From: Alphaproteobacteria bacterium
Lineage (GTDB): Bacteria > Pseudomonadota > Alphaproteobacteria > UBA2966
Direction of reading: 5' to 3'
Assembly (NCBI GenBank): GCA_964291395.2
Contig: OZ219856.1
Location: 1,632,001 to 1,696,000, forward strand
DNA length: 64,000 bases
The stretch's first letter is position 1; each line of letters opens with the position of its first letter. The position numbers were made by a program, and so were the translations under genes. Positions 1,754 to 62,107 of this stretch are shown here, piece after piece. The notes beneath the pieces were generated by a model that had not been told where the DNA came from, did no database searches, and worked only from the letters and a program-made list of their open reading frames with translations.

Positions 1754-2851
1754 GTGAAGATCAGAAACCTCACCGTCAAGTCGCTGCACTGGGATCTCGA
1801 CCCTCCCCTCTCGAATCCGGTTCTCACCTGGTACAAGAAGGAGATCGTGCTCGCCTTCATAGAGACCGACACCGGGTTGACGGGTGTCGGCGAGGGCTGG
1901 GTGGCTGGCGGAACGGCGCGTGCGCTGGCCGCCACGCTCGAGGACGACATCGCACCGGTGGTCGTCGGCAGAGACCCGCGTCACATCGCCGCGATCTGGG
2001 AAGACATGGATTTCAGCCGCAGCATCAACGCCCGCCCGGGCCTGATCCGGGCGGCGATGTCGGCCGTCGACATGGCTCTCTGGGACGTGCTCGCCCGGCA
2101 CGCCGGGCTGCCGCTCTATCAGCTGCTCGGCGGGCATTCCGACCACGCCTATGTCTATGCAAGCGCGGGCCTCTACGGGAAGGACAAGTCCGTTTCGGAT
2201 CTCGCCGGGGAGATGTCGGGCTACATCGCCCGGGGGTTCACCTCCGTCAAGATGAAGGTCGGCGGTGCTCCCCTCGATGTCGACGTCGAGCGCGTAAAGG
2301 CGGCGCGGGAGGCGATCGGACCCGACCATCGCCTGATGATCGACGCCGTCTGCGGCATGACCACCCACGACGCCCTCGCGCTGGCGGAACGCGTCAGGCC
2401 GTTCGACATCTACTTCTTCGAGCAGCCTGTCGCCGCCTACGACTACGATGGCATGGCGGTGATCAACGCGCGGAGCGGCATCCCCGTCGCGGGCAACGAG
2501 AACTTCATCGACCAGCGGGAGTTCCACGAGCTCCTGGTTCGCAGGTCCGTCACCTTTACCCAGTTCGATCTGGCGATCTGCGGAGGCATCACGGAAGGCT
2601 TGCGCATCGCCGCGACCGCACGCCCCTGGTACAGCCCCACGACCATTCACAGCGCGAGCTCCATCGTCTGCATGGCCGCGAGCCTCCACACGGCGGCAGC
2701 TCTGTCCAACTGCGAATCCGTTGAGTATCACATGCTGCACCGCTGGCTGTTCGACCGCGCGCCCGACGGATTCCTGGCGGTCGAGGACTCACGCATCCGG
2801 CTGTCCGACCGCCCGGGCCTGGGCCTTGATCTCAATCCGGATGATTTCTGA
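1754..2851 (+). CDS. Mandelate racemase/muconate lactonizing enzyme family (enolase superfamily)
   Basis: ETDTGLTGVGE, SAVDMALWD, KMKVG (KxK), EQP, GNE metal ligands. GTG start after GGAG. Confidence 0.9.
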   Translation: MKIRNLTVKSLHWDLDPPLSNPVLTWYKKEIVLAFIETDTGLTGVGEGWVAGGTARALAATLEDDIAPVVVGRDPRHIAAIWEDMDFSRSINARPGLIRAAMSAVDMALWDVLARHAGLPLYQLLGGHSDHAYVYASAGLYGKDKSVSDLAGEMSGYIARGFTSVKMKVGGAPLDVDVERVKAAREAIGPDHRLMIDAVCGMTTHDALALAERVRPFDIYFFEQPVAAYDYDGMAVINARSGIPVAGNENFIDQREFHELLVRRSVTFTQFDLAICGGITEGLRIAATARPWYSPTTIHSASSIVCMAASLHTAAALSNCESVEYHMLHRWLFDRAPDGFLAVEDSRIRLSDRPGLGLDLNPDDF

Positions 2852-2930
2852 CTCCGTCGCCCCGTCCCTCTCCCATCCGCTTCCACCACCGCAACCCCGA
2901 TGGTCGGATAACGGGATACGAGGGGAAGGC

Positions 2931-3701
2931 TCAATCCCGGGGATTGATCATGCCGGACTGGCCGCCTGTCACGTCCACGATGGCCCCGGAAACGAACGAC
3001 GCCTCGTCCGAAAGAAGCCACAGGATGGCGTCCGCCACCTCCTCGGGTTTGCCGTCGCGCATCTCGGGGTTCTGGGCTACGAATTTCTCTATGCGGTCGG
3101 GCCAATTCGCGTTGATGTGGAAGTTCGTGATGACGAATCCGGGCCGCACGGCGTTTACGCGCACGCGTTGCTGCGCCACCTCCTTGGACAGCCCGATCGT
3201 GTACGTGTCCGCGGCGCCGTTCGACGCCGCGTAGTGGATCCAGTAGCCGGGCGCCCCGTGCTGGGTGGCCGGCGAGGTCACGTTGACGATCGCGCCCCCT
3301 TCCCCGCCATGTTTCGGCATCATGCGCCTCAGGGCCTCGCGACAACACAGAATGATGCCCATCACCTTGGTGTCCATGGTCACCTGAATGTCCGCGGCCG
3401 TCACCTGATCGGCCGTGGCCCGGCCCGGCACGAAACCCGCATTGTTGACCAGAGCCGTCACCGGGCCGAGCTCCCGGTCCACCGTCTCGAACATGCCGAG
3501 AACGTCATCTTCCTTGCCAACGTCCGCTTTCACGGCGATCGCCTTGCGTCCGAGCTTCCCGATCTCCGCCACGACGGCTTCGGCCTCGGCCGATCGGCTG
3601 CGGTAGTTGACGCAGACGTCATACCCGCGCCGGGCGCCGACCCGCGCGGTTGCCGCCCCGATCCCCGTGCTTGCTCCGGTGACGATGAGAACTCCGCTCA
3701 C
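2931..3701 (-). CDS. SDR family oxidoreductase
   Basis: TGASTGIG, LVNNAG, YAASN (Lys of YxxxK replaced), RVNAVRPG. Confidence 0.9.
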   Translation of the reverse strand: MSGVLIVTGASTGIGAATARVGARRGYDVCVNYRSRSAEAEAVVAEIGKLGRKAIAVKADVGKEDDVLGMFETVDRELGPVTALVNNAGFVPGRATADQVTAADIQVTMDTKVMGIILCCREALRRMMPKHGGEGGAIVNVTSPATQHGAPGYWIHYAASNGAADTYTIGLSKEVAQQRVRVNAVRPGFVITNFHINANWPDRIEKFVAQNPEMRDGKPEEVADAILWLLSDEASFVSGAIVDVTGGQSGMINPRD

Positions 3702-8698: not shown

Positions 8699-10288
8699 TC
8701 ACCCGTCTCCCGCCTCGCCGTAGCCTCCGCCGCCGCCGGTCGAGAGAATGATCTTTTCGCCCTTCTTGAGGCGGTAGTGCCCGCGGCCCTCGATCACCTC
8801 CTCCGTGCCGCCCGTCGAGACGCGCCGCAATTCGTAGGGGGCTCCGCTCTCGCCCCCGAGCAGGCCATAGGGCGGCACCTTACAGCGATCCAGCATGGCC
8901 GCGAACTTGGTGTCCTCTCCCAGCATTTCATAGATCCGCACGACGCCGTTGCCTCCGCGGTGGCGGCCGCGCCCCCCCGATCCGTCCCGCAGCGCCTGCT
9001 TCGAGACGACGATGGGATATTGCGCCTCGACCATCTCGGCGGGCGTGTTCATGACGTTGGCGAGGTTCACGCGCGTTGCGGACCACCCGTCCCGGTCGAC
9101 GCGGCCCCCTTCGCCGCCGCCGTGAGCCTCGTAAAAGGACCACCAGCGGCCGTCCGGCCATTGGCCGCTGAAGATGAGCACCGACGCCGATCCGGAACCG
9201 CCAGCCGTCACGGCGTCGGGAACGCAGTGCACCATCGCCCGCATGATCGCGTCGACACAGCGCTGCGACGTCTCGTGATTGCCGAGGACGACGGGATAGC
9301 TGTAGGGCGGACTCAGGACGGAGCCCGGGCGGGTGATCACTTTCACCGCACGAAAGAACCCGTCGGCGTGGAAGATTTCGTGCTTGGAGATGGCCTTGAT
9401 GAAGAACCCGGCGGCGGTCGCGGCGAGCGACGGCGTCGCGTTCACCGGCGCCTCGACCGCATCGCCCGAGGCGCTGAAATCGAAGGTCGCGCCGTCCCCG
9501 TCGATCGTGACCTTGACCCGGATGGCAACGTGCTCCCCGTCGGAGCCGATGTCGTCCATATGGTCTTCACCTTCGTAGACGCCGTCCGGCAGGACGCGAA
9601 TGGCCTCGCGAGTCTGCTCCTCGGTCAGCTCGTTGAGCTTCTCCACGGCGGCCTTGAACGTCTCTGGACCGTGTGTCTCGAACAGGGTCTGCAGGCGGGT
9701 ATCCGCTACCCGCGTAGCGGCCGCCTGAGCGAACATGTCGCCCCGGATGACGTCACGCGTGCGTATGTTGGCGAGCAGGAGGTTGAGACTTTCTTCGATC
9801 GGCTCGTCGCCGGCGAAGAACCGGGTCGGCGGAATACGAAAGCCGTCCTGCCAAACGTCCGTCGCGTGGGCCGTGTAGCTGCCGGGCGTCGCGCCTCCGA
9901 TGTCCTCCCAGTGGGCGAGCGAAACCGCAAAGGCGAGCAGTTCTCCCTCGTGGAAGACGGGCCGCACCGCCTTCACGTCGGGTAGATGATTGCCGCCGAC
10001 CTCGGGCAGATTGAGATACCAGATATCGCCGGGCGCCAGTCTCTCCTTGCCCACCACCTTGAGGAATTCCCGTGCCGCGAACCCCATGACACCGAGATGG
10101 ATGGGGATGTCCCGGCCCTGGGCAATGACTCCGCCGTCGGCGGAAGTCAGGGCGGACGAATGGTCGCCCGCCTCGCGCAACAGCGGGGACCGTGCGGCCC
10201 GCATGACCACGAGCGACATCTCTTCGGCGATGGATGCCAGGGCTTGGCGGATCACCTCCACCGTGAAGACATCGGGTCGTTCGCTCAT
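8699..10288 (-). CDS. Hydantoinase B/oxoprolinase family protein
   Basis: RAARSPLLREAGD, GGNHLPD, HWEDIGG, GGGGGYG. Start overlaps the A-subunit stop (ATGA). Confidence 0.9.
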   Translation of the reverse strand: MSERPDVFTVEVIRQALASIAEEMSLVVMRAARSPLLREAGDHSSALTSADGGVIAQGRDIPIHLGVMGFAAREFLKVVGKERLAPGDIWYLNLPEVGGNHLPDVKAVRPVFHEGELLAFAVSLAHWEDIGGATPGSYTAHATDVWQDGFRIPPTRFFAGDEPIEESLNLLLANIRTRDVIRGDMFAQAAATRVADTRLQTLFETHGPETFKAAVEKLNELTEEQTREAIRVLPDGVYEGEDHMDDIGSDGEHVAIRVKVTIDGDGATFDFSASGDAVEAPVNATPSLAATAAGFFIKAISKHEIFHADGFFRAVKVITRPGSVLSPPYSYPVVLGNHETSQRCVDAIMRAMVHCVPDAVTAGGSGSASVLIFSGQWPDGRWWSFYEAHGGGEGGRVDRDGWSATRVNLANVMNTPAEMVEAQYPIVVSKQALRDGSGGRGRHRGGNGVVRIYEMLGEDTKFAAMLDRCKVPPYGLLGGESGAPYELRRVSTGGTEEVIEGRGHYRLKKGEKIILSTGGGGGYGEAGDG

Positions 10289-12288
10289 GATGTTTCTCCA
10301 ACCTCGATCCGGAGGTGGCCGTGCGGCGTCGTGCCGAGCCGGCAACCGGGAGGCACGACGGTCGTCGACGTCCGGTCCACGACGACGAGAGGACCCTCCA
10401 TGGTCCGCGCCGGGCCGAGATCGTCTCGCGCGTAGACGGGCGTAACGGCGGGACCTCCCGCGAAGATGCAGCTCACGGCTTCGATGGGTTCGGGCGCCGC
10501 GCCCGACGCCCCCGGGCGGCCGAATTCCGGCCTCTCGGGATCGATCTTCGCTGCGACACGCAACGACTGAACCTCCCACGGCTCATCCGTGTGATAGCCG
10601 TAGAGCTCCTGGTGGCGCCGCCAGAACGCTCCTTGAAGCTCATCGGCGCGGCTCTCGGGCATGCAGGGGATTTCGATCGCGTAGCTCTGGCCGAGATAGC
10701 GCATGAACGCGACATACTCCACGCTGACCTCGGGAGTCCCGCTGCGGCCTTGCAACAGGCTTTCCCGCGCCTCGTCGGCGATTTCGGTACAGACCCGCTT
10801 GAACGCATCGGCGTTCCAGTCCGTACCTGTCAGGCGCACCGTCCGCTGGCGCGTGTAGCTCGGAGCCGCGGTCAGACAGCCGATCGCCGAGAGGAGGCTT
10901 GAATCTCTCGGCACCAGAACCGTGCCGATGCCCACGTCGCGGGCGAGTTCGGCGGCATACATCGGCCCTGCCCCACCGAATGCGATCAATGTGCAGTCAC
11001 GGGTATCCACGCCCCGGTCCACCGTGATTCGTCTGAGCGCCCGCGCCATGTTGGCGTTGGCAACGCGCACCACGCCCCGGGCTACACGCGGCATGGGTGT
11101 ATCCAGTTGACGGGCGATGCCTTCGAAGGCCCGTTCCGCCAAGTCCCTGTCGACCCGGATGTTGCCGTCGGTGTGCGTGGACGGCTGTAGATATCCCAAT
11201 ATGACCGCGGCATCGGTCAACGTGGGCCGGCTACCCCCCCGGCCATAGCACGCGGGACCCGGGTCGGCGCCGGCGCTTTCCGGCCCCACCTGCATGCCTG
11301 CCGATCCGTGACGGACGAGCGACCCGCCGCCGGCGCCGATGGAGTGCACGGCCAGCATCTGCAGATTCACCGTCCACGGACCCACTTGCGCCTGGTCCCG
11401 GACCTCCGGCTGACCGTCCACGATCAGGCAGACGTCCGTCGTCGTGCCGCCCATGTCGATACTGATGGCGAGCGGCGCCTGTACGTCTCTCGCCACCTGA
11501 CGGGCCGCTTCCACGCCCGCGGCGGGACCCGAGAGTGCGAGTGAAAGGGGCAGAGACACGGCGGCTTCCGGCGTCATCATGCCACCCGCCGAATGAAACA
11601 GTTCCAGGCGCAGATCGGGGGGCAGGAACTCGTCCAGCGTGGCGACGTAATCGGCCACCATCGGCATCACGCTCGCATTCAACACCGTGGCGAGCGTCCG
11701 CTCGTACTCCTTGAGTTGCGGCCACACCTGATGGGACAGCGAAACGTGCGAATAGAACTCCCGGCACAGCTCGCCCACGGATCGCTCGTGCTCGCCGTTG
11801 GCGTAGGCATGCAGCAGCGAGACCGCGATCGAATCGGCCGTACCGTCGAGGCTTCTCAGGATCTCCCGAACCCGGTCCGCATCCAACGGAGTCGCGATGC
11901 TGCCGTCCGGCCGCATGCGGGCGTCGATTTCGAAGCGCAGTTCCCGCGGTACCGGAGCGGGCTCGCGGGGAAGCGCCGCCAGGTTGTAAAGCACCCGTCG
12001 CGATTGCCGCGCGATGTCGAGGACATCGCCGTATCCGGCGGTGGTGAGCAGCGCCACGCGCCCGAGTTGACCCTGGATGATGGCATTGGTGACGATAGTC
12101 GTGCCGAACGTCAGCATCCGCACGTCCGCCGTTTCCAGATCCAGGGCCTCGAGGGCGGTCGAGACGGTCGCCCGTGGGTCGTCCTTGACGCTCCAGACCT
12201 TGGCGGTCCGGGACTGTCCCGTCGTTCCGTCGTGCGCCACCACGTCCGTGAACGTGCCGCCGATGTCGATGCCGAGGTGCCAGCTCAT
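10285..12288 (-). CDS. Hydantoinase A/oxoprolinase family protein (ATP-binding subunit)
   Basis: GIDIGGTFTD, SGPAAGV, DMGGTTTD, GAGGGS, SAGADPGPACYGRGG, AFGGAGP. Confidence 0.92.
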   Translation of the reverse strand: MSWHLGIDIGGTFTDVVAHDGTTGQSRTAKVWSVKDDPRATVSTALEALDLETADVRMLTFGTTIVTNAIIQGQLGRVALLTTAGYGDVLDIARQSRRVLYNLAALPREPAPVPRELRFEIDARMRPDGSIATPLDADRVREILRSLDGTADSIAVSLLHAYANGEHERSVGELCREFYSHVSLSHQVWPQLKEYERTLATVLNASVMPMVADYVATLDEFLPPDLRLELFHSAGGMMTPEAAVSLPLSLALSGPAAGVEAARQVARDVQAPLAISIDMGGTTTDVCLIVDGQPEVRDQAQVGPWTVNLQMLAVHSIGAGGGSLVRHGSAGMQVGPESAGADPGPACYGRGGSRPTLTDAAVILGYLQPSTHTDGNIRVDRDLAERAFEGIARQLDTPMPRVARGVVRVANANMARALRRITVDRGVDTRDCTLIAFGGAGPMYAAELARDVGIGTVLVPRDSSLLSAIGCLTAAPSYTRQRTVRLTGTDWNADAFKRVCTEIADEARESLLQGRSGTPEVSVEYVAFMRYLGQSYAIEIPCMPESRADELQGAFWRRHQELYGYHTDEPWEVQSLRVAAKIDPERPEFGRPGASGAAPEPIEAVSCIFAGGPAVTPVYARDDLGPARTMEGPLVVVDRTSTTVVPPGCRLGTTPHGHLRIEVGETS

Positions 12289-12377
12289 GGAATACTCACC
12301 CGTACTCACCCGTCCCGTCCTCGGGACAGGCATACCGTCCGGACTCCGGCTTGTCGAGACGATGCGACGCTCGAGAG

Positions 12378-13763
12378 TCACCAGGAGACGTAGCTGACGA
12401 CGATCCCCGCCGCTGCGGTTAGTCCGAGGGTGACGAACAGCCCGAGATGCCGGCCGAAGGTGAGCCAGATTGCAAAGACGGTCAGGCCCAGCGCCGAGAA
12501 GTCAGTGCCGGACAAAGAAGGCAACGGCACGGATACGAGACCGAACTCGAATGCGTCGACGTCCCGGAATACCACGTGCATGCCGAACCACACGGCGAGG
12601 TTGAGCACCACGCCGACGACGGCCGCCGTGATGCCGGAAAGCGCCGCGCTGAGGCTCCGGTTGTTCCGCAGCCTCTCGACATAGGGCGCGCCGAGGAAGA
12701 TCCATAGGAAACAGGGAACGAAGGTCACCCAGGTGGCAAGCGCCGCCCCGATGACACCTGCGGTCAGCGGATCGAGACCGCCCGGGTTGCGGAAGGCCGC
12801 CAGGTAGCCCACGAACTGAACCACCATGATCAAAGGACCAGGTGTGGTCTCGGCGAGCCCGAGGCCGTCCAGCATCTCGCCCGGCGCCAGCCAGCCGTAG
12901 GCCTCGACCGCCTGCTGCGCCATATATGCCAGCACCGCATAGGCGCCGCCGAACGTCACCACGGCGAGCTTGCTGAAGAACCAGCCGATCTGGGTGAAGG
13001 CATCATCCCCACCCAGGACGAGCAACGCCACGATGGTCGGCCCGAACCACAAGGGCAGGCAGACTGCGACGACACGCGCCGCGTGCGCCAAGGACGGCCT
13101 TGTATGGTCGAGACGACCGGAATCGAGCGCGGCATCCGCGATGGCGTCACTATCCGCGCTTCCATGTCCTTGGATGACAACGAAGCGATCGGGATCGAAC
13201 TGCGCTCCGAGAAACCCGATCAGCGCGGCTGCCACGACGATCACGGGAAACGGAACGGAAAAGAAGAAGATCGCGACGAAGGCCAGCGCCGCGATGGCGT
13301 ACATGGCCGGGTTACCCAACGCCCGGCGGCCGATGCGCAGCACGGCCTCGACGACGATGGCCAGCACCGCCGCCTTGATGCCGAAAAACAGCGCGTCGAT
13401 GAGTGGCAGATGGCTGTAAAGCGCATAGACGATACTGAGCGCCAGAATCACCAAGGCGCCCGGCAGGACGAACAGGATGCCCGCGGCCAATCCGCCCAGG
13501 GTTCGGTGAAGGAGCCAACCCACGTAGGTAGCAAGCTGCTGCGCCTCGGGGCCCGGCAGCAGCATGCAGTAGTTGAGCGCGTGCAAATAGCGCGCTTCGC
13601 CGATCCAGCGTTTCTCGTCGACGAGGATGCGATGCATCATGGCGATCTGACCGGCCGGTCCGCCGAAACTCAGCAGCCCGACCTTCAGCCACACCCGGAG
13701 GGCCTCGCGGAAAGGGACCTCCGCGACTCCGGCTTCAACCTCCTGCGTCGTTGCGGCCGTCAT
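12378..13763 (-). CDS. chrA: Chromate efflux transporter (long-chain CHR)
   Basis: LSFGGPAGQIA, LLPGPEAQQLA, TFGGAYAVL, ETTPGPLI. Confidence 0.95.
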   Translation of the reverse strand: MTAATTQEVEAGVAEVPFREALRVWLKVGLLSFGGPAGQIAMMHRILVDEKRWIGEARYLHALNYCMLLPGPEAQQLATYVGWLLHRTLGGLAAGILFVLPGALVILALSIVYALYSHLPLIDALFFGIKAAVLAIVVEAVLRIGRRALGNPAMYAIAALAFVAIFFFSVPFPVIVVAAALIGFLGAQFDPDRFVVIQGHGSADSDAIADAALDSGRLDHTRPSLAHAARVVAVCLPLWFGPTIVALLVLGGDDAFTQIGWFFSKLAVVTFGGAYAVLAYMAQQAVEAYGWLAPGEMLDGLGLAETTPGPLIMVVQFVGYLAAFRNPGGLDPLTAGVIGAALATWVTFVPCFLWIFLGAPYVERLRNNRSLSAALSGITAAVVGVVLNLAVWFGMHVVFRDVDAFEFGLVSVPLPSLSGTDFSALGLTVFAIWLTFGRHLGLFVTLGLTAAAGIVVSYVSW

Positions 13764-14569
13764 GACCTCTCCCCCGCGTTTTCGCTTATGCGTTGCCGGC
13801 AATCGGCATAGAGGGCGTCATACACCTTCATGCCGGCATCCAACATCGCGAGATCGTCTGTATGAAGCACCGCAAGACCTCGGGAAATGGAAACGAGCCC
13901 GGCACTTTCGGGAGCCAGTTTGTAATGTCTGGTGTCGGCCCCGCGAACGATGTCCGCCAAAGCGTCAACGGCTTCATCCTGGATATCGAACTTCTCGAGG
14001 AACGCGTCGAAGCTGCAATTGCCATTCATGTGGGTGAGCTCAACGCCGTCCACATCGAACGGTGTAGCGCCCGTGACTTCGGCCACGGCGTCGACGTGCT
14101 CGGCTTCAACGTAGAGGATCGCCGCGTCCGGATCGAGAAAGCGGCGCACCAACCAGGGACATGCGATGCGGTCGATCTTCGGCCGTGCCCGGGTTACCCA
14201 TCGGGTCCGGCCATCGGGACCGCGCTGCGGGAGAGACTTCCGGGTGACGGTGGGACCACCCCCCTCGACGAAACCATCGATCCCACCGACCAGATATCGA
14301 GCGGTCAGTCCAGCGGATCGTAACAATGCCGCGACGCTTTGGCTCATCTGGTGGCCGTGGATGCAATAGGCGACCACGCCGCGATCACCGTCCAGGTCGT
14401 TGGACCATTCGTGCACGGACAGTGGATCGCGCCATATTGCGGTCGCGACGGTGATGTCGGAGGCCTCGTAAGCCTCCTGCCGCCGCACGTCGATCACGGT
14501 TGGACTTCGGCCCGACGCCAGTAGTTCTATGAGTTCTTGGGGTTCGAGAGAAAGTGGGGTATCGCCCAT
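13760..14569 (-). CDS. chrB: Rhodanese + ChrB C-terminal domain chromate resistance protein
   Basis: N-terminal rhodanese (IDVRR, YCIHGHQMS, LVGGI). C-terminal WVTRARPKIDRIACPWLVRRFLDP, CSFDAF, IVRGADT. Confidence 0.88.
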   Translation of the reverse strand: MGDTPLSLEPQELIELLASGRSPTVIDVRRQEAYEASDITVATAIWRDPLSVHEWSNDLDGDRGVVAYCIHGHQMSQSVAALLRSAGLTARYLVGGIDGFVEGGGPTVTRKSLPQRGPDGRTRWVTRARPKIDRIACPWLVRRFLDPDAAILYVEAEHVDAVAEVTGATPFDVDGVELTHMNGNCSFDAFLEKFDIQDEAVDALADIVRGADTRHYKLAPESAGLVSISRGLAVLHTDDLAMLDAGMKVYDALYADCRQRISENAGERS

Positions 14570-14657
14570 AAGTCGCCCTCCTGATTCAGCAGGATTGCGA
14601 CGGCGCTTGGGCGCGATTGCCTTGGAGTTGCGGGGAGACCGCCTTTACCCCCACGCG
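14570..14657 (-). ncRNA. Structured 5' leader of chrB; candidate chrB-a/chrB-b RNA motif
   Basis: P1 GCGUGGGGG/CUCCCCGC, loop GGCGGU complementary to downstream GCCGUC, hairpin over the SD. Lies between a promoter and chrB. Confidence 0.55.
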
Positions 14658-14661
14658 GAAC

Positions 14662-14690
14662 AATATGGGTAAGGCCTGCGGCTTTTGCAA
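14662..14690 (-). promoter_or_regulatory. sigma70-type promoter for chrB-chrA
   Basis: TTGCAA-17 nt-CATATT on the minus strand. Confidence 0.6.
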
Positions 14691-14715
14691 GTCGGAATGG
14701 CGCGTACGGCCAATA

Positions 14716-16131
14716 TCATTGGAGCGGCGGGACCTTTTCGTGCCAATCCGTTTCCCGCTGATAGGCGTGGCCCAAGGTGAATAGGCGGGCCTCGGAAAAC
14801 GGGCGGCCGATGAGCTGGAAGCCGAGCGGCAAACCCTTTCCGTTGAAACCGCAGGGGACCGCCAGCGCCGGCAAACCCAGATATCCCACCGGGCGGGTCA
14901 GTCGGGCTACGCGGTGCATCAGCTCCGCCGCCCGCTCCGCGTTACCGGGACTGACATCGGCCATCTTGGGCGCCGCGTCCTCGCTGACCGGCGCGTGGAG
15001 AACATCGACTTTCCCGAAAACCCGCTCGACGAACTCCACCATCTTGGGTTCGCGCATGCGCTGAGCTTCGAGATAGCGGACGGCCGGAATCAGCAGCCCG
15101 CTCTCGAGCTCTCCTCGGATTCCGTCCGAGTAATCCTGGGGGCGGGTACGCAGCCACTCCTCGTGAATGGCCGACGCCTCGGCCTTGAGGCCGACCTGGG
15201 CCAGCTCGTAGATCTGCTCGAGGTCGGGGATGTCGACCTCCGCGACCTCGACGCCGAGTCCGCGATAGACGTCGAGACTCGCCATGACGGCAGCCTCCAT
15301 CTCGGCGTCGACGGCGTCGTAGAAGTAGCTCGTCGGCACACCAACCCGCATGCCCCGCACGTTGTCCTCCAGACGCGCCTCGTAATCCGGCACTTCGACG
15401 TGCACGGTATAGCCGTCCATCGGGTCACGACCGGCGATGACTTTCGTCATCCGCGCGCAGTCCCGGACGGTCCGGGTCAACGGGCCCATGGAGTCCGTGG
15501 CGTAGGAGCGGGGCATGGCCCCGTAGCGGCTGACGCGGCCGTAACCGGGCTTGAGACCCGCCAGCCCGCACTGCATGGCGGGCAGACGGACCGATCCTCC
15601 GGTGTCGGAGCCCATGGCGCCGTAGACCAGACGCGCGGCGACGGCGGACCCGGACCCGCTCGATGAGGCACCCGGCGAGTGCTCGACGTTCCAGGGGTTG
15701 AAGCAGTCGCCGAAGTGTTCGTTATGGCCGGTCGATCCGGCGGCGAACTCCACCATGTTGAGGGTGCCGGCCTGCAGCGCCCCGGACGCCTCCAGGCGTT
15801 CGATGACGGTCGCCGTATGGTCCGGACGCCAGCCGCGCCGAATCTTCGACCCGCACGTGCAGATCTTACCGGCACGATAGAACATGTCCTTGTGGGCGAG
15901 CGGCACGCCGTGCAGCGGGCCGCAGGCCTCGGGGTCGCGTGCGAGTTTTCCATCCGCGGCTTTCGCCGCGTCGAGCACGTCGCCGGCTTCGATGGAAATA
16001 AAGCAGTTGAGCGCCGGTTGATGCCGCTCGATTCGCGCGAGGCAGGCTTCGGTGACCTCGACGGAGGACACGCGTTTGTCCCGGATCGCGGACGCGACCT
16101 CCGTCAGGCTCAGATGTGTAACGTCGGTCAT
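14716..16131 (-). CDS. Amidase signature family protein (GatA/AtzE-like)
   Basis: GPLHGVPLAHKD, PGASSSGS, GSDTGGSVRLPA catalytic Lys-Ser-Ser motifs. Confidence 0.93.
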   Translation of the reverse strand: MTDVTHLSLTEVASAIRDKRVSSVEVTEACLARIERHQPALNCFISIEAGDVLDAAKAADGKLARDPEACGPLHGVPLAHKDMFYRAGKICTCGSKIRRGWRPDHTATVIERLEASGALQAGTLNMVEFAAGSTGHNEHFGDCFNPWNVEHSPGASSSGSGSAVAARLVYGAMGSDTGGSVRLPAMQCGLAGLKPGYGRVSRYGAMPRSYATDSMGPLTRTVRDCARMTKVIAGRDPMDGYTVHVEVPDYEARLEDNVRGMRVGVPTSYFYDAVDAEMEAAVMASLDVYRGLGVEVAEVDIPDLEQIYELAQVGLKAEASAIHEEWLRTRPQDYSDGIRGELESGLLIPAVRYLEAQRMREPKMVEFVERVFGKVDVLHAPVSEDAAPKMADVSPGNAERAAELMHRVARLTRPVGYLGLPALAVPCGFNGKGLPLGFQLIGRPFSEARLFTLGHAYQRETDWHEKVPPLQ

Positions 16132-16413: not shown

Positions 16414-17508
16414 TCACGGCAGCGGACCTCCGGTACGCACCGGCGGCGGCGCGACGGTGCCGCGGATGCTGAGCACGCTGTCGAGCTCGGTGAGATGCGC
16501 CGCAGGTTGATCCGCGATGCGCGCAAGGAGGTATTCCGCGGCCAGGCGGCCCATCTCCGCCGCCGGGACGTTCACCGCCGTCAGCGGCGGATTCATGTGG
16601 CGGGAAATCTCCAGATCGTCGAAACCGGTGATGGAGATCTCTTCAGGAACGCCGATTCCCATCCTATGGCATTCCAGCAGGGCGCCGATCGCATAGACGT
16701 CGCTCGTGCACAGGATGGCGGTCGGCGGAGAGGTCACGGCCATGAGCTGGCGGAACGCGTCCCGCCCGTCCGTCACGCCGTATTTGCGCTCCACGACTCG
16801 TTCCGGCGGCAAAGCCAGTCCCCGTTCCGCCATGGCGCGGCGCAACCCTTCGATTCGTCCCCGCGCGCGATCGTTCTCGTCGTCGAGCCCGCCGACGATG
16901 ATGGCTATGTCCCGATGTCCCATGTCGAGGACGTAGCGCGCCATCTTCAGCATGGCCTCGCTATTGTCGAACCCGATGCAAGGATGCTCCGAAGCGGGTT
17001 CGAAAACCCAGGTATTGACGAACGGGACGTTTCGCTCGACGAGGAATTCGGTGAGCCCCGGCGCGTGTTCGATTCCCACCATGACGATACCGTCCACGCC
17101 ACGGGCGATGAGCGCCCTGACCTGCCGGGCCTCCTCCGCGAGATCGTAGTTCGAATAGGCCATCAAGGACGTGTAGTCCGCCGCCGCGAGACGGGACTGG
17201 AACGCCTGTACGCCCGCCGCGAAGGGCGCGACGTCGAGGGTCGGCACGACGAACCCAAAGGTATTGGTCCTTCCCGTCACCAACGCCCGGGCGGAGGCAT
17301 CCGGCACATATTCGAGTTCCTTGACGGCCGAACCGACCCGTCCGCGCAGCGCCGGACTGACCGCCTCGGGTGAACTGAAGAAGCGCGATACGGTCGCCGT
17401 GGAGACGCCGGCCACTTCCGCGACATCCGCCAGCGTTGGCCGGCGATGGCCCGAGTGGCGCCCCTCTTGTGCACCGTCTTCGCCGTGCACAGAATCCCGA
17501 TCGGTCAT
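16414..17508 (-). CDS. LacI family transcriptional regulator
   Basis: PTLADVAEVAGVSTATVSR HTH, ITGFDD, PPLTAV. Confidence 0.95.
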   Translation of the reverse strand: MTDRDSVHGEDGAQEGRHSGHRRPTLADVAEVAGVSTATVSRFFSSPEAVSPALRGRVGSAVKELEYVPDASARALVTGRTNTFGFVVPTLDVAPFAAGVQAFQSRLAAADYTSLMAYSNYDLAEEARQVRALIARGVDGIVMVGIEHAPGLTEFLVERNVPFVNTWVFEPASEHPCIGFDNSEAMLKMARYVLDMGHRDIAIIVGGLDDENDRARGRIEGLRRAMAERGLALPPERVVERKYGVTDGRDAFRQLMAVTSPPTAILCTSDVYAIGALLECHRMGIGVPEEISITGFDDLEISRHMNPPLTAVNVPAAEMGRLAAEYLLARIADQPAAHLTELDSVLSIRGTVAPPPVRTGGPLP

Positions 17509-56470: not shown

Positions 56471-56617
56471 GCGAGCCACGCTTCGCATTCGACATGTGTT
56501 ATCTGAACGGCCGTCAATCCTGTTAGCCTTGCTCTTCCCTGACATTGTGAGACCTGACAAGACCGAGCCGACACACGGTGTGCAGCACGGACACTCTCTA
56601 ACGGCTGAGGACTTACC

Positions 56618-56827
56618 ATGCCTACGGGAACAGTTAAATGGTTCAACCCTGCCAAGGGTTACGGCTTCATCGAGCCTGAGGAAGGCGGCAAGGACGCGTT
56701 CGTCCACATCTCGGCCGTCGAGCGTGCAGGCCTCAACACCCTGCACGAAGGCCAGAAGGTCTCCTACGAGCTTCAGCCCGGCCGCGACGGCAAGTCGTCC
56801 GCCGAGAACCTGAACCTCGTCGAATAG
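56618..56827 (+). CDS. cspA: Cold-shock protein
   Basis: GTVKWFN, KGYGFI, FVHISA. Confidence 0.97.
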   Translation: MPTGTVKWFNPAKGYGFIEPEEGGKDAFVHISAVERAGLNTLHEGQKVSYELQPGRDGKSSAENLNLVE

Positions 56828-56832
56828 CTGTC

Positions 56833-56862
56833 CCGCCGCCGCCGAGGGTTTCGCTGGCGGCG
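56833..56862 (+). terminator. Hairpin after cspA
   Basis: CCGCCGCC...GGCGGCGG stem; weak U-tract. Confidence 0.5.
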
Positions 56863-56949
56863 GTCCATTCGGTTCTCCGGAAACCTTCGGAGTGCCTAGC
56901 GACGGGGTGTCGAGCCGATGGATCCGTCGTTCGTGCGCCTGATTCGGTG

Positions 56950-62031: not shown

Positions 62032-62107
62032 TGGTGCGCCCGCTAGGAATCGAACCTAGGACCCACTGATTAAAAGTCAGTTGCTCTGCCGACTGAGCTA
62101 CGGGCGC
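62032..62107 (-). tRNA. tRNA-Lys (UUU)
   Basis: GCGCCCG acceptor stem, D arm GCTCAGTCGGCAGAGC, anticodon loop CTTTTAA, T arm GGTTCGATTCC, encoded CCA; 76 nt. Confidence 0.97.

Follow-up and report, generated by a model that had tools for sequence, protein, structure and literature searches.

The 64,000-nucleotide (nt) stretch of DNA analysed here (contig OZ219856.1 of assembly GCA_964291395.2, from an Alphaproteobacteria bacterium; termed the window in what follows) carries on its minus strand a structured leader directly ahead of a gene for a rhodanese-ChrB_C fusion protein and of chrA, a gene for a chromate transporter. This leader is a divergent and unannotated member of the chrB RNAs, a known class of orphan riboswitch candidates, and not a new kind of element, and it probably acts as a translational switch. 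Taken alone the leader is no better than chance, and it is the comparison of loci that makes the element real.

The chrB-a and chrB-b motifs have been described as related alphaproteobacterial RNAs, likely to be 5' untranslated regions (5' UTRs) of several classes of chromate-resistance genes, and were proposed by the same authors to be chromate sensors (Weinberg et al. 2017, PMC5737381). According to the available text of that report, in vitro work gave no evidence that the RNA binds chromate or related chemicals. Analysis of covariation with CaCoFold has revealed an extra pseudoknot helix in the chrB RNA, as the available part of that study states (Rivas 2020, PMC7657543). Our literature search on chrB RNA motifs turned up these two studies alone and no paper assigning a ligand; the chrB RNAs are orphan riboswitch candidates whose gene context points to chromate and for which no ligand was found.

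The leader and its match to the chrB models

The leader lies in a 146-nt gap between an amidase gene, which terminates at 14716 on the minus strand, and the rhodanese-ChrB_C fusion gene (13760..14569, minus strand, 269 amino acids, ATG at 14569-14567). All leader coordinates below are those of the window and refer to its minus strand. The chrB-b covariance model (RF03086) matches the leader in full (14600..14653, model positions 1-49 of 49) with 31.6 bits and an expectation value (E) of 8.1e-5 in a 501-nt search, or 0.01 in a search of the whole window, although this score is below the Rfam gathering score of 36.5 and the leader is not a listed member by the Rfam cut-off. The chrB-a model (RF03078) gives 15.9 bits on the same leader (E 2.9), far under its gathering score of 43.9, and an Rfam scan of the window at gathering thresholds lists a transfer RNA (tRNA) only and no chrB RNA. 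The first-pass annotation, made from the sequence of the window, had proposed a leader of the chrB-a/chrB-b type; the full-length chrB-b match agrees with that proposal, whereas its score does not reach the level at which Rfam assigns membership. Since the score falls below this threshold, standard annotation overlooks the leader, and the window thereby adds a divergent natural variant to the chrB RNAs.

In the cmscan alignment the GGGG/CCCC core of P1, the first hairpin of chrB-b, is present at 14653-14648 with 14636-14631, the CCAAGC of the model falls at 14610-14605, and the hairpin preceding it has shrunk to GGC/GCC with one non-standard pair. The complementarity between loop and tail that makes the chrB-b pseudoknot is retained as GGCGGU with GCCGUC, and the consensus words GCAG/CUGC read GCGG/CCGU in the window, so that an A-U pair of the consensus loop-tail helix becomes G-C. 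The window leader is like chrB-b in its P1 core, in its GC(A/G)G loop word, in its 3' strand complementary to the loop and in its place in the 5' UTR of chromate-resistance genes; the second hairpin (P2) before CCAAGC is there in a reduced form. It differs from chrB-b in having 6 extra nt between P1 and P2, and in a P2 of 3 pairs with a mismatch and a 6-nt loop, compared with 5 pairs and a 4-nt loop in chrB-b. The Rfam model of chrB-b ends at the pseudoknot strand, whereas the hairpin of the window that covers the Shine-Dalgarno (SD) sequence lies outside the model.

On reading the sequence, all of the features listed by the first-pass annotation are found where it had placed them on the minus strand. 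P1 (14630..14654) had been given as nine bases with eight, which is the same helix but needs a bulged U; we use a version of seven pairs, GUGGGGG (14654-14648) with UCCCCGC (14636-14630), closing an 11-nt loop of sequence UAAAGGCGGUC (14647-14637). The 5' strand of the pseudoknot, GGCGGU, lies within this loop (14638..14643) and pairs with the 3' strand GCCGUC (14599..14604) in six pairs, two of them G-U. Between these strands stands the P2 mini-hairpin (14610..14621), in which GGC (14621-14619) and GCC (14612-14610) enclose the loop AAUCGC, and 3' of P2 comes an unpaired CAAG (14606..14609) that is conserved and corresponds to the CCAAGC of the chrB-b consensus. The leader then closes with P3, a hairpin over the ribosome-binding site (14572..14601), in which an outer stem of GUCGC (14601-14597) with GCGAC (14576-14572), ending 2 nt before the AUG, encloses an inner stem of UCCUG (14594-14590) with CAGGA (14583-14579) over the SD sequence AGGAGG (14577..14582), itself 7 nt ahead of the start codon. 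The inner pairing had already been pointed out and is present, and the outer stem and the GGC/GCC hairpin are additions to that earlier description. Both stems of P3 are kept in L001, the closest of the related loci described below, with a G-C pair of the inner stem changed to G-U.

Upstream of P1 stand a putative -35 hexamer TTGCAA (14685..14690) and a putative -10 hexamer CATATT (14662..14667), separated by 17 nt. The two hexamers recur unchanged and equally spaced in L001, where the spacer itself has diverged, and the distance of 31 nt from the -35 hexamer to P1 is the same in the window and in a chrB-a locus (L003). From this putative promoter, transcription is predicted to start at about 14655, which would probably place P1 at the extreme 5' end of the transcript. 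The promoter named in the first-pass annotation is thus present and identical in a relative, but a sigma-70 promoter scan of 14400-14900 called no site; the hexamers match the sigma-70 consensus at 8 of 12 positions, and the scan requires 9.

Several other features of the leader were noted. The alternative hairpin GCGC-CCAA-GCGC (14603..14614), which had also been noted before, exists in the sequence, but comparative support for it is absent, its pairing on the alignment A2 (see below) being attained by 121 of 500 shuffles with few informative rows. The P2 loop AAUCGC (14613-14618) is the same word as the pseudoknot 3' strand of chrB-a, and pairing with the loop word GCGGU would be possible; the word is not kept, because L001 reads AAUAGC at this place, and it may be left over from an ancestor resembling chrB-a, or be due to chance. 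The stretch CCCCAC in codons 4-6 of the fusion gene (14553-14558) is complementary to the 5' arm of P1, and the two pair in the minimum free energy (MFE) fold when coding sequence is included; it is absent from L001. Two other readings of the leader were rejected. Transcription termination was set aside since there is no terminator-like site in the leader region, and a leader peptide, encoded by a small frame from GUG at 14654 to UGA at 14586, was set aside since no separate small frame is kept in L001, where an indel of 1 nt puts the stretch in frame with the main gene.

Conservation and covariation among related loci

Genome contigs searched with a single protein query gave two loci related to that of the window. 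L001 is from an alphaproteobacterial metagenome-assembled genome (MAG), encodes a protein 65% identical to that of the window and has the same amidase upstream; L002 is from a Phyllobacteriaceae MAG, with a protein 47% identical. A chrB-b match lies directly upstream of the orthologous gene in both, with 25.6 bits in L001 and 22.1 bits in L002, both below threshold. The same fusion gene occurs on plasmids of many alphaproteobacteria, as found by tblastn of plasmids, which supplied 21 loci (L003-L023) and a further three (L030-L032) when the L002 protein was the query; the latter carry chrB-a and not chrB-b. In all 24 of these plasmid rhodanese-ChrB_C loci, chrB-a scores above its gathering threshold (47.9-80.3 bits, against 43.9) and the match ends at the start codon. 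Among plasmids, the window leader itself gave seven short blastn matches at E = 4, none adjoining chromate genes, the L002 leader gave no blastn match, and the L002 protein gave no full-length tblastn relative above 55%.

In the loci sampled, the presence of the RNA follows the form of the ChrB protein. ChrB is the chromate-responsive transcriptional regulator of the chr operon (TnOtChr) of Ochrobactrum tritici, according to the available text of Branco and Morais 2013 (PMC3817168). That regulator controls chrA-type chromate efflux genes and has ChrB_C in common with the protein encoded in the window, but it is DNA-binding, whereas in the protein of the window a rhodanese domain replaces ChrB_N. 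Pfam finds ChrB_C (1.8e-45) and Rhodanese (7.4e-10) in it and no ChrB_N, which confirms the domain replacement seen by the first-pass annotation. Six loci with other forms of the gene (L024-L029) gave no chrB RNA match at E <= 5. They comprise a Cupriavidus plasmid (L024), on which chrE (rhodanese) and a ChrB_C-only gene are separate and adjacent with a 4-nt overlap (1498-2294); alphaproteobacterial loci with longer ChrB genes (L025-L028), of which L025, L026 and L028 have ChrB_N and ChrB_C by Pfam and L027 is unannotated; and L029, whose ChrB_C-only gene is located after chrA. The full-length forms checked here thus carry ChrB_N, and their loci are without chrB RNA. Among alphaproteobacterial loci the RNA was found at 27 of 27 with the rhodanese-ChrB_C form and at 0 of 5 with other forms, in keeping with the earlier suggestion that the form of the protein fits control at the RNA level. 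The positive side of this association is partly built in, because loci were collected by similarity to the window-type protein, and its negative side consists of five alphaproteobacterial loci. In this sample the RNA accompanies the form lacking ChrB_N and not full-length ChrB, a pattern suggesting that chr operons are controlled either at the RNA level or at the protein level.

MAFFT alignments (A1 and A2) and a leader-by-leader parse were used to compare the leaders of the window, L001 and L002 with the chrB-a RNAs. A2 contains 23 distinct rows, with L012, L017, L018 and L022 omitted as core repeats of L010, L015, L010 and L009, respectively. The same order of parts is common to all of these leaders: P1 with its GGGG/CCCC core, a loop with a GCGAU-like word, a linker ending in A, GGC-loop-GCC, nAAG, one spacer base, a strand complementary to the loop word, and P3. 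In every type P3 has its first bases within the pseudoknot strand, and its 3' arm includes the SD sequence or lies next to it and stops 1-11 nt short of the start codon. The A2 columns that do not vary across the two types comprise two C in the 3' arm of P1, the A that precedes P2, GGC/GC within P2 and the central A of AAG (A47); A46 and G48 are nearly invariant. From the comparison with chrB-a, the conserved core of the chrB RNAs can be narrowed to the GGGG/CCCC stem of P1, the pseudoknot between loop and tail, and the unpaired bases on either side of P2, an A on its 5' side and AAG on its 3' side.

In the pseudoknot, two-sided changes occur in all six pairs (A2 columns 11-16 with 50-55), and 89.8% of cells pair. 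For P2 (columns 33-35 with 42-44) all cells pair in 23 of 23 rows, two of the pairs being invariant and one varying between G-C and G-U. When the six pairs of the loop-tail helix and the three of P2 are taken together, 93.2% of cells pair, compared with 23-46% after a shift of the 3' partner by 1-3 columns. For this set none of 500 shuffles reached the observed pairing, the number of two-sided pairs, the number of two-sided cells or the covariation score, and 4 of 500 reached the observed number of further pair types. P1 also varies in a compensatory manner: its pair 2 is G-C in 24 of 26 leaders and C-G in the other two (L002 and L031), and pair 6 is U-A, A-U, C-G, G-U or U-G in 22 of 26. RNAalifold on the window, L001 and L002 recovers P1, P2 and one downstream helix. 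Both a covariance-model match and compensatory changes in homologues, two of the observations on which the first-pass annotation had staked its proposal, were thus found, the latter also in the pseudoknot it had drawn between GGCGGU and GCCGUC.

Compared with chrB-a, the window has the same order of P1, pseudoknot loop strand, A-GGC-loop-GCC-nAAG, pseudoknot 3' strand and P3 with the SD sequence before the AUG, the same downstream genes (rhodanese-ChrB_C and then chrA, in 24 of 24 chrB-a loci) and the same overlap of pseudoknot and P3, which in the window amounts to 3 nt. The differences lie in the lengths and words of the parts. The window's P1 loop is 11 nt long, that of most chrB-a leaders 7-9 nt; the P2 loop of the window type has 6 nt; the linker from P1 to P2 has 8 nt in the window, 7 in L001 and 2 in L002, compared with 3 nt in chrB-a; the pseudoknot word is GCCGU in the window and AUCGC in chrB-a; and P3 of the window is unlike that of chrB-a in sequence and has an extra inner stem over the SD. 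The chrB-a RNAs of two Methylocystis plasmids (L015 and L017) have GCCCAAG after P2, as in chrB-b, instead of the usual GCCGAAG, and the chrB-a and chrB-b families therefore grade into each other.

Competing folds and the proposed switch

The pseudoknot 3' strand and the 5' arm of P3 share 2-5 nt in every leader parsed, 24 of 24 in one parse and 26 of 26 in a second, to which L030-L032 were added and from which L022 was dropped as a duplicate of L009. In the window the shared bases are 14601-14599, which are the last three of the pseudoknot strand and the first three of the P3 outer stem: the G pairs with C in the pseudoknot and C in P3, the U with G and A, and the C with G and G. Such bases change together with both of their partners. 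Thus a shared C of chrB-a, whose partner is a G both in the loop and in P3, becomes a U with A and A in L001 and a U with G and A in the window, and a neighbouring shared G with C and C in chrB-a becomes a C with G and G in L002. Since the shared bases change with both partners, both helices are expected to form at different times, which is the signature of a switch. As judged from comparison of sequences, the alternation of two mutually exclusive structures, pseudoknot and P3, would be a feature of an expression platform.

We consider it reasonably likely that the leader, as a divergent 5' UTR RNA of the chrB family, works as a translational switch between these two folds. Its sensing part would be an H-type pseudoknot made of P1, of P2 flanked by the conserved unpaired A and AAG, and of the loop-tail helix. 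Because the last three bases of the pseudoknot strand are the first three of P3, the pseudoknot and the complete P3 would be mutually exclusive, so that an effector stabilising the pseudoknot would open the base of P3 and raise translation of the rhodanese-ChrB_C gene and, by translational coupling to it, that of chrA. In ViennaRNA calculations the full SD hairpin has -16.8 kcal/mol, its inner part alone -7.1 kcal/mol and the loop-tail duplex -7.6 kcal/mol; without the shared bases the SD hairpin thus loses almost 10 kcal/mol of stability. What the data show is homology to the chrB RNAs and a set of covarying helices, two of which overlap; that the switch is ON with effector is something we infer from the biology of resistance operons and not from computation. 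Candidates for the effector are chromate acting together with a cofactor, something produced under chromate stress, and a protein; the first-pass annotation had suggested that an oxyanion or a sulfur species might be sensed.

A parallel for such a device is the fluoride (crcB motif) riboswitch, a small pseudoknotted 5' UTR RNA with a proven ligand which turns on genes for export of, and resistance to, a toxic anion. The Rfam model of this riboswitch has no match in the window leader or in the whole window.

A number of results weigh against the leader being a switch of this kind, among them the sub-threshold Rfam scores, the failure of the sigma-70 scan to call the promoter and the in vitro findings given above. 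The 106-nt leader has an MFE of -41 kcal/mol, which gives z = -1.21, with 20 of 200 shuffles folding equally well, and shuffling the P1 loop yields an equally good pseudoknot in 229 of 2000 cases. When each loop was matched with every tail, matched and unmatched partners were not separated, because all of the leaders are G+C-rich. The window's own subtype consists of three sequences only (window, L001 and L002). The L007 row of A2 is off by one column in the loop, which accounts for extra unpaired cells, and for L015 the second overlap parse chose another P3 than the first. The mean probability that the SD is unpaired is 0.33 without constraint and 0.25 with the pseudoknot strands withheld, since the inner stem UCCUG/CAGGA persists and the SD is not freed at equilibrium. 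Opening of the SD would therefore have to be kinetic or assisted by the ribosome, or else the direction of the switch would be the reverse of that proposed.

Other explanations of the leader were weighed as well. It could be an operator bound by the rhodanese-ChrB_C protein or another factor, with chromate acting through that protein and not as a small molecule sensed by the RNA, which we hold to be unlikely. Such an operator would fit the absence of evidence for chromate binding in vitro in the available text of PMC5737381, the co-occurrence of the RNA with the form of ChrB that has ChrB_C without ChrB_N (27 of 27, compared with 0 of 5 other forms) and the role of ChrB as a chromate-responsive regulator in Ochrobactrum tritici (PMC3817168, in the text available). 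That association, however, is partly built in because the loci were found through this protein, chrB motifs precede several gene classes according to the same part of PMC5737381, and the PDB matches to the model of the fusion protein are all rhodanese-like, with no known RNA-binding fold among them. In a specific form of this idea, which we also consider unlikely, the rhodanese-ChrB_C protein, which retains the presumed chromate-sensing domain ChrB_C, would attach to the 5' UTR of its own mRNA and let go of it in the presence of chromate or of a chromium-thiol product, and thus be a chromate-responsive translational autoregulator; if true, this would account both for the failed in vitro binding of chromate and for the occurrence of the RNA only with the form lacking ChrB_N. 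It is improbable, in our estimate, that the leader is a constitutive structure in which a hairpin at the 5' end, together with structure around the ribosome-binding site, fixes mRNA stability and a low rate of translation with no effector. P1 at the predicted 5' end, the lack of a known ligand for chrB RNAs and an SD that is mostly paired in both modelled states would all be expected of such a structure, whereas the conserved unpaired A26, A46, A47 and G48 of A2 and a pseudoknot kept by two-sided changes would be superfluous for a plain stabilising hairpin, and the covariation of bases common to two helices with both partners points to two alternative states.

The comparison of loci also bears on two explanations that deny the RNA a function of its own. 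The GGGG...CCCC inverted repeat lies directly downstream of the putative promoter and might be a DNA operator for a repressor with the RNA structure as its by-product, and symmetric changes within such a palindrome could pass for the covariation of P1. Yet the pairs of the long-range pseudoknot and of P3 covary and are not palindromic, the element reaches the start codon and includes the SD, and 24 of 24 related loci give strong matches to Rfam models of sequence and structure, which makes a DNA operator very unlikely. That the resemblance to chrB is a matter of chance and the leader functionless is barely credible: the sub-threshold score, the unremarkable fold energy and the weak promoter match would be compatible with it, but the element occupies the corresponding position in L001 and L002, whose proteins are 65% and 47% identical, and aligns part by part with 24 bona fide chrB-a RNAs that precede this gene in other loci.

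The operon, its fusion protein and other features of the window

The rhodanese-ChrB_C gene is followed by chrA (12378..13763, minus strand), for which Pfam gives Chromate_transp at 7.2e-76 on a longer open reading frame (ORF; 12378..13802). As read from the sequence, the likely start of chrA is the ATG at 13763; this codon and the TGA that ends the rhodanese-ChrB_C gene overlap as ATGA (13760-13763), and this overlap suggests that translation of chrA is coupled to that of the rhodanese-ChrB_C gene. A G-rich stretch precedes the overlap. On the same strand chrA is succeeded, almost without a gap, by a hydantoinase/oxoprolinase gene (10285-12381), and a LacI-family regulator gene (16414-17508, minus strand) lies upstream of the amidase.

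The rhodanese-ChrB_C fusion is widespread, with 7981 of 8000 candidates scored reaching E <= 1e-10, and among the invariant residues are Cys69 of the rhodanese loop and Cys137 of ChrB_C. The closest relatives of the window protein (P0002-P0006, 72-99% identity) are from metagenome sources only. An AlphaFold2 model of the protein has a mean predicted local distance difference test (pLDDT) score of 92.2 and a predicted template modelling (pTM) score of 0.90. Searches of the PDB by sequence and by fold returned rhodanese domains only, the N-terminal domain corresponding to solved rhodanese folds, and no known RNA-binding fold was among the matches to the model. A two-domain rhodanese aligned with the model over 191 columns at a root-mean-square deviation of 13, which is a weak match. 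The structure model and the PDB searches gave nothing informative on ChrB_C, and a literature search for structures of the ChrB C-terminal domain found none. In L001 the ORF of the fusion gene (2501-3297) stops at 3283 and the Pfam match to ChrB_C ends at position 90 of 132, whereas tblastn similarity reaches 3297; the discrepancy may reflect a frameshift or an error in MAG assembly.

Elsewhere in the window, the tRNA listed by Rfam is encoded at 62035-62107 on the minus strand (75.5 bits), with a spurious Plastid-ycf2 match on the opposite strand. The Rfam cspA thermoregulator model matches 56518-56866 on the plus strand over its whole length (E 3.5e-6), with 37.8 bits compared with a gathering score of 78, and this match may represent the leader of a cold-shock gene.

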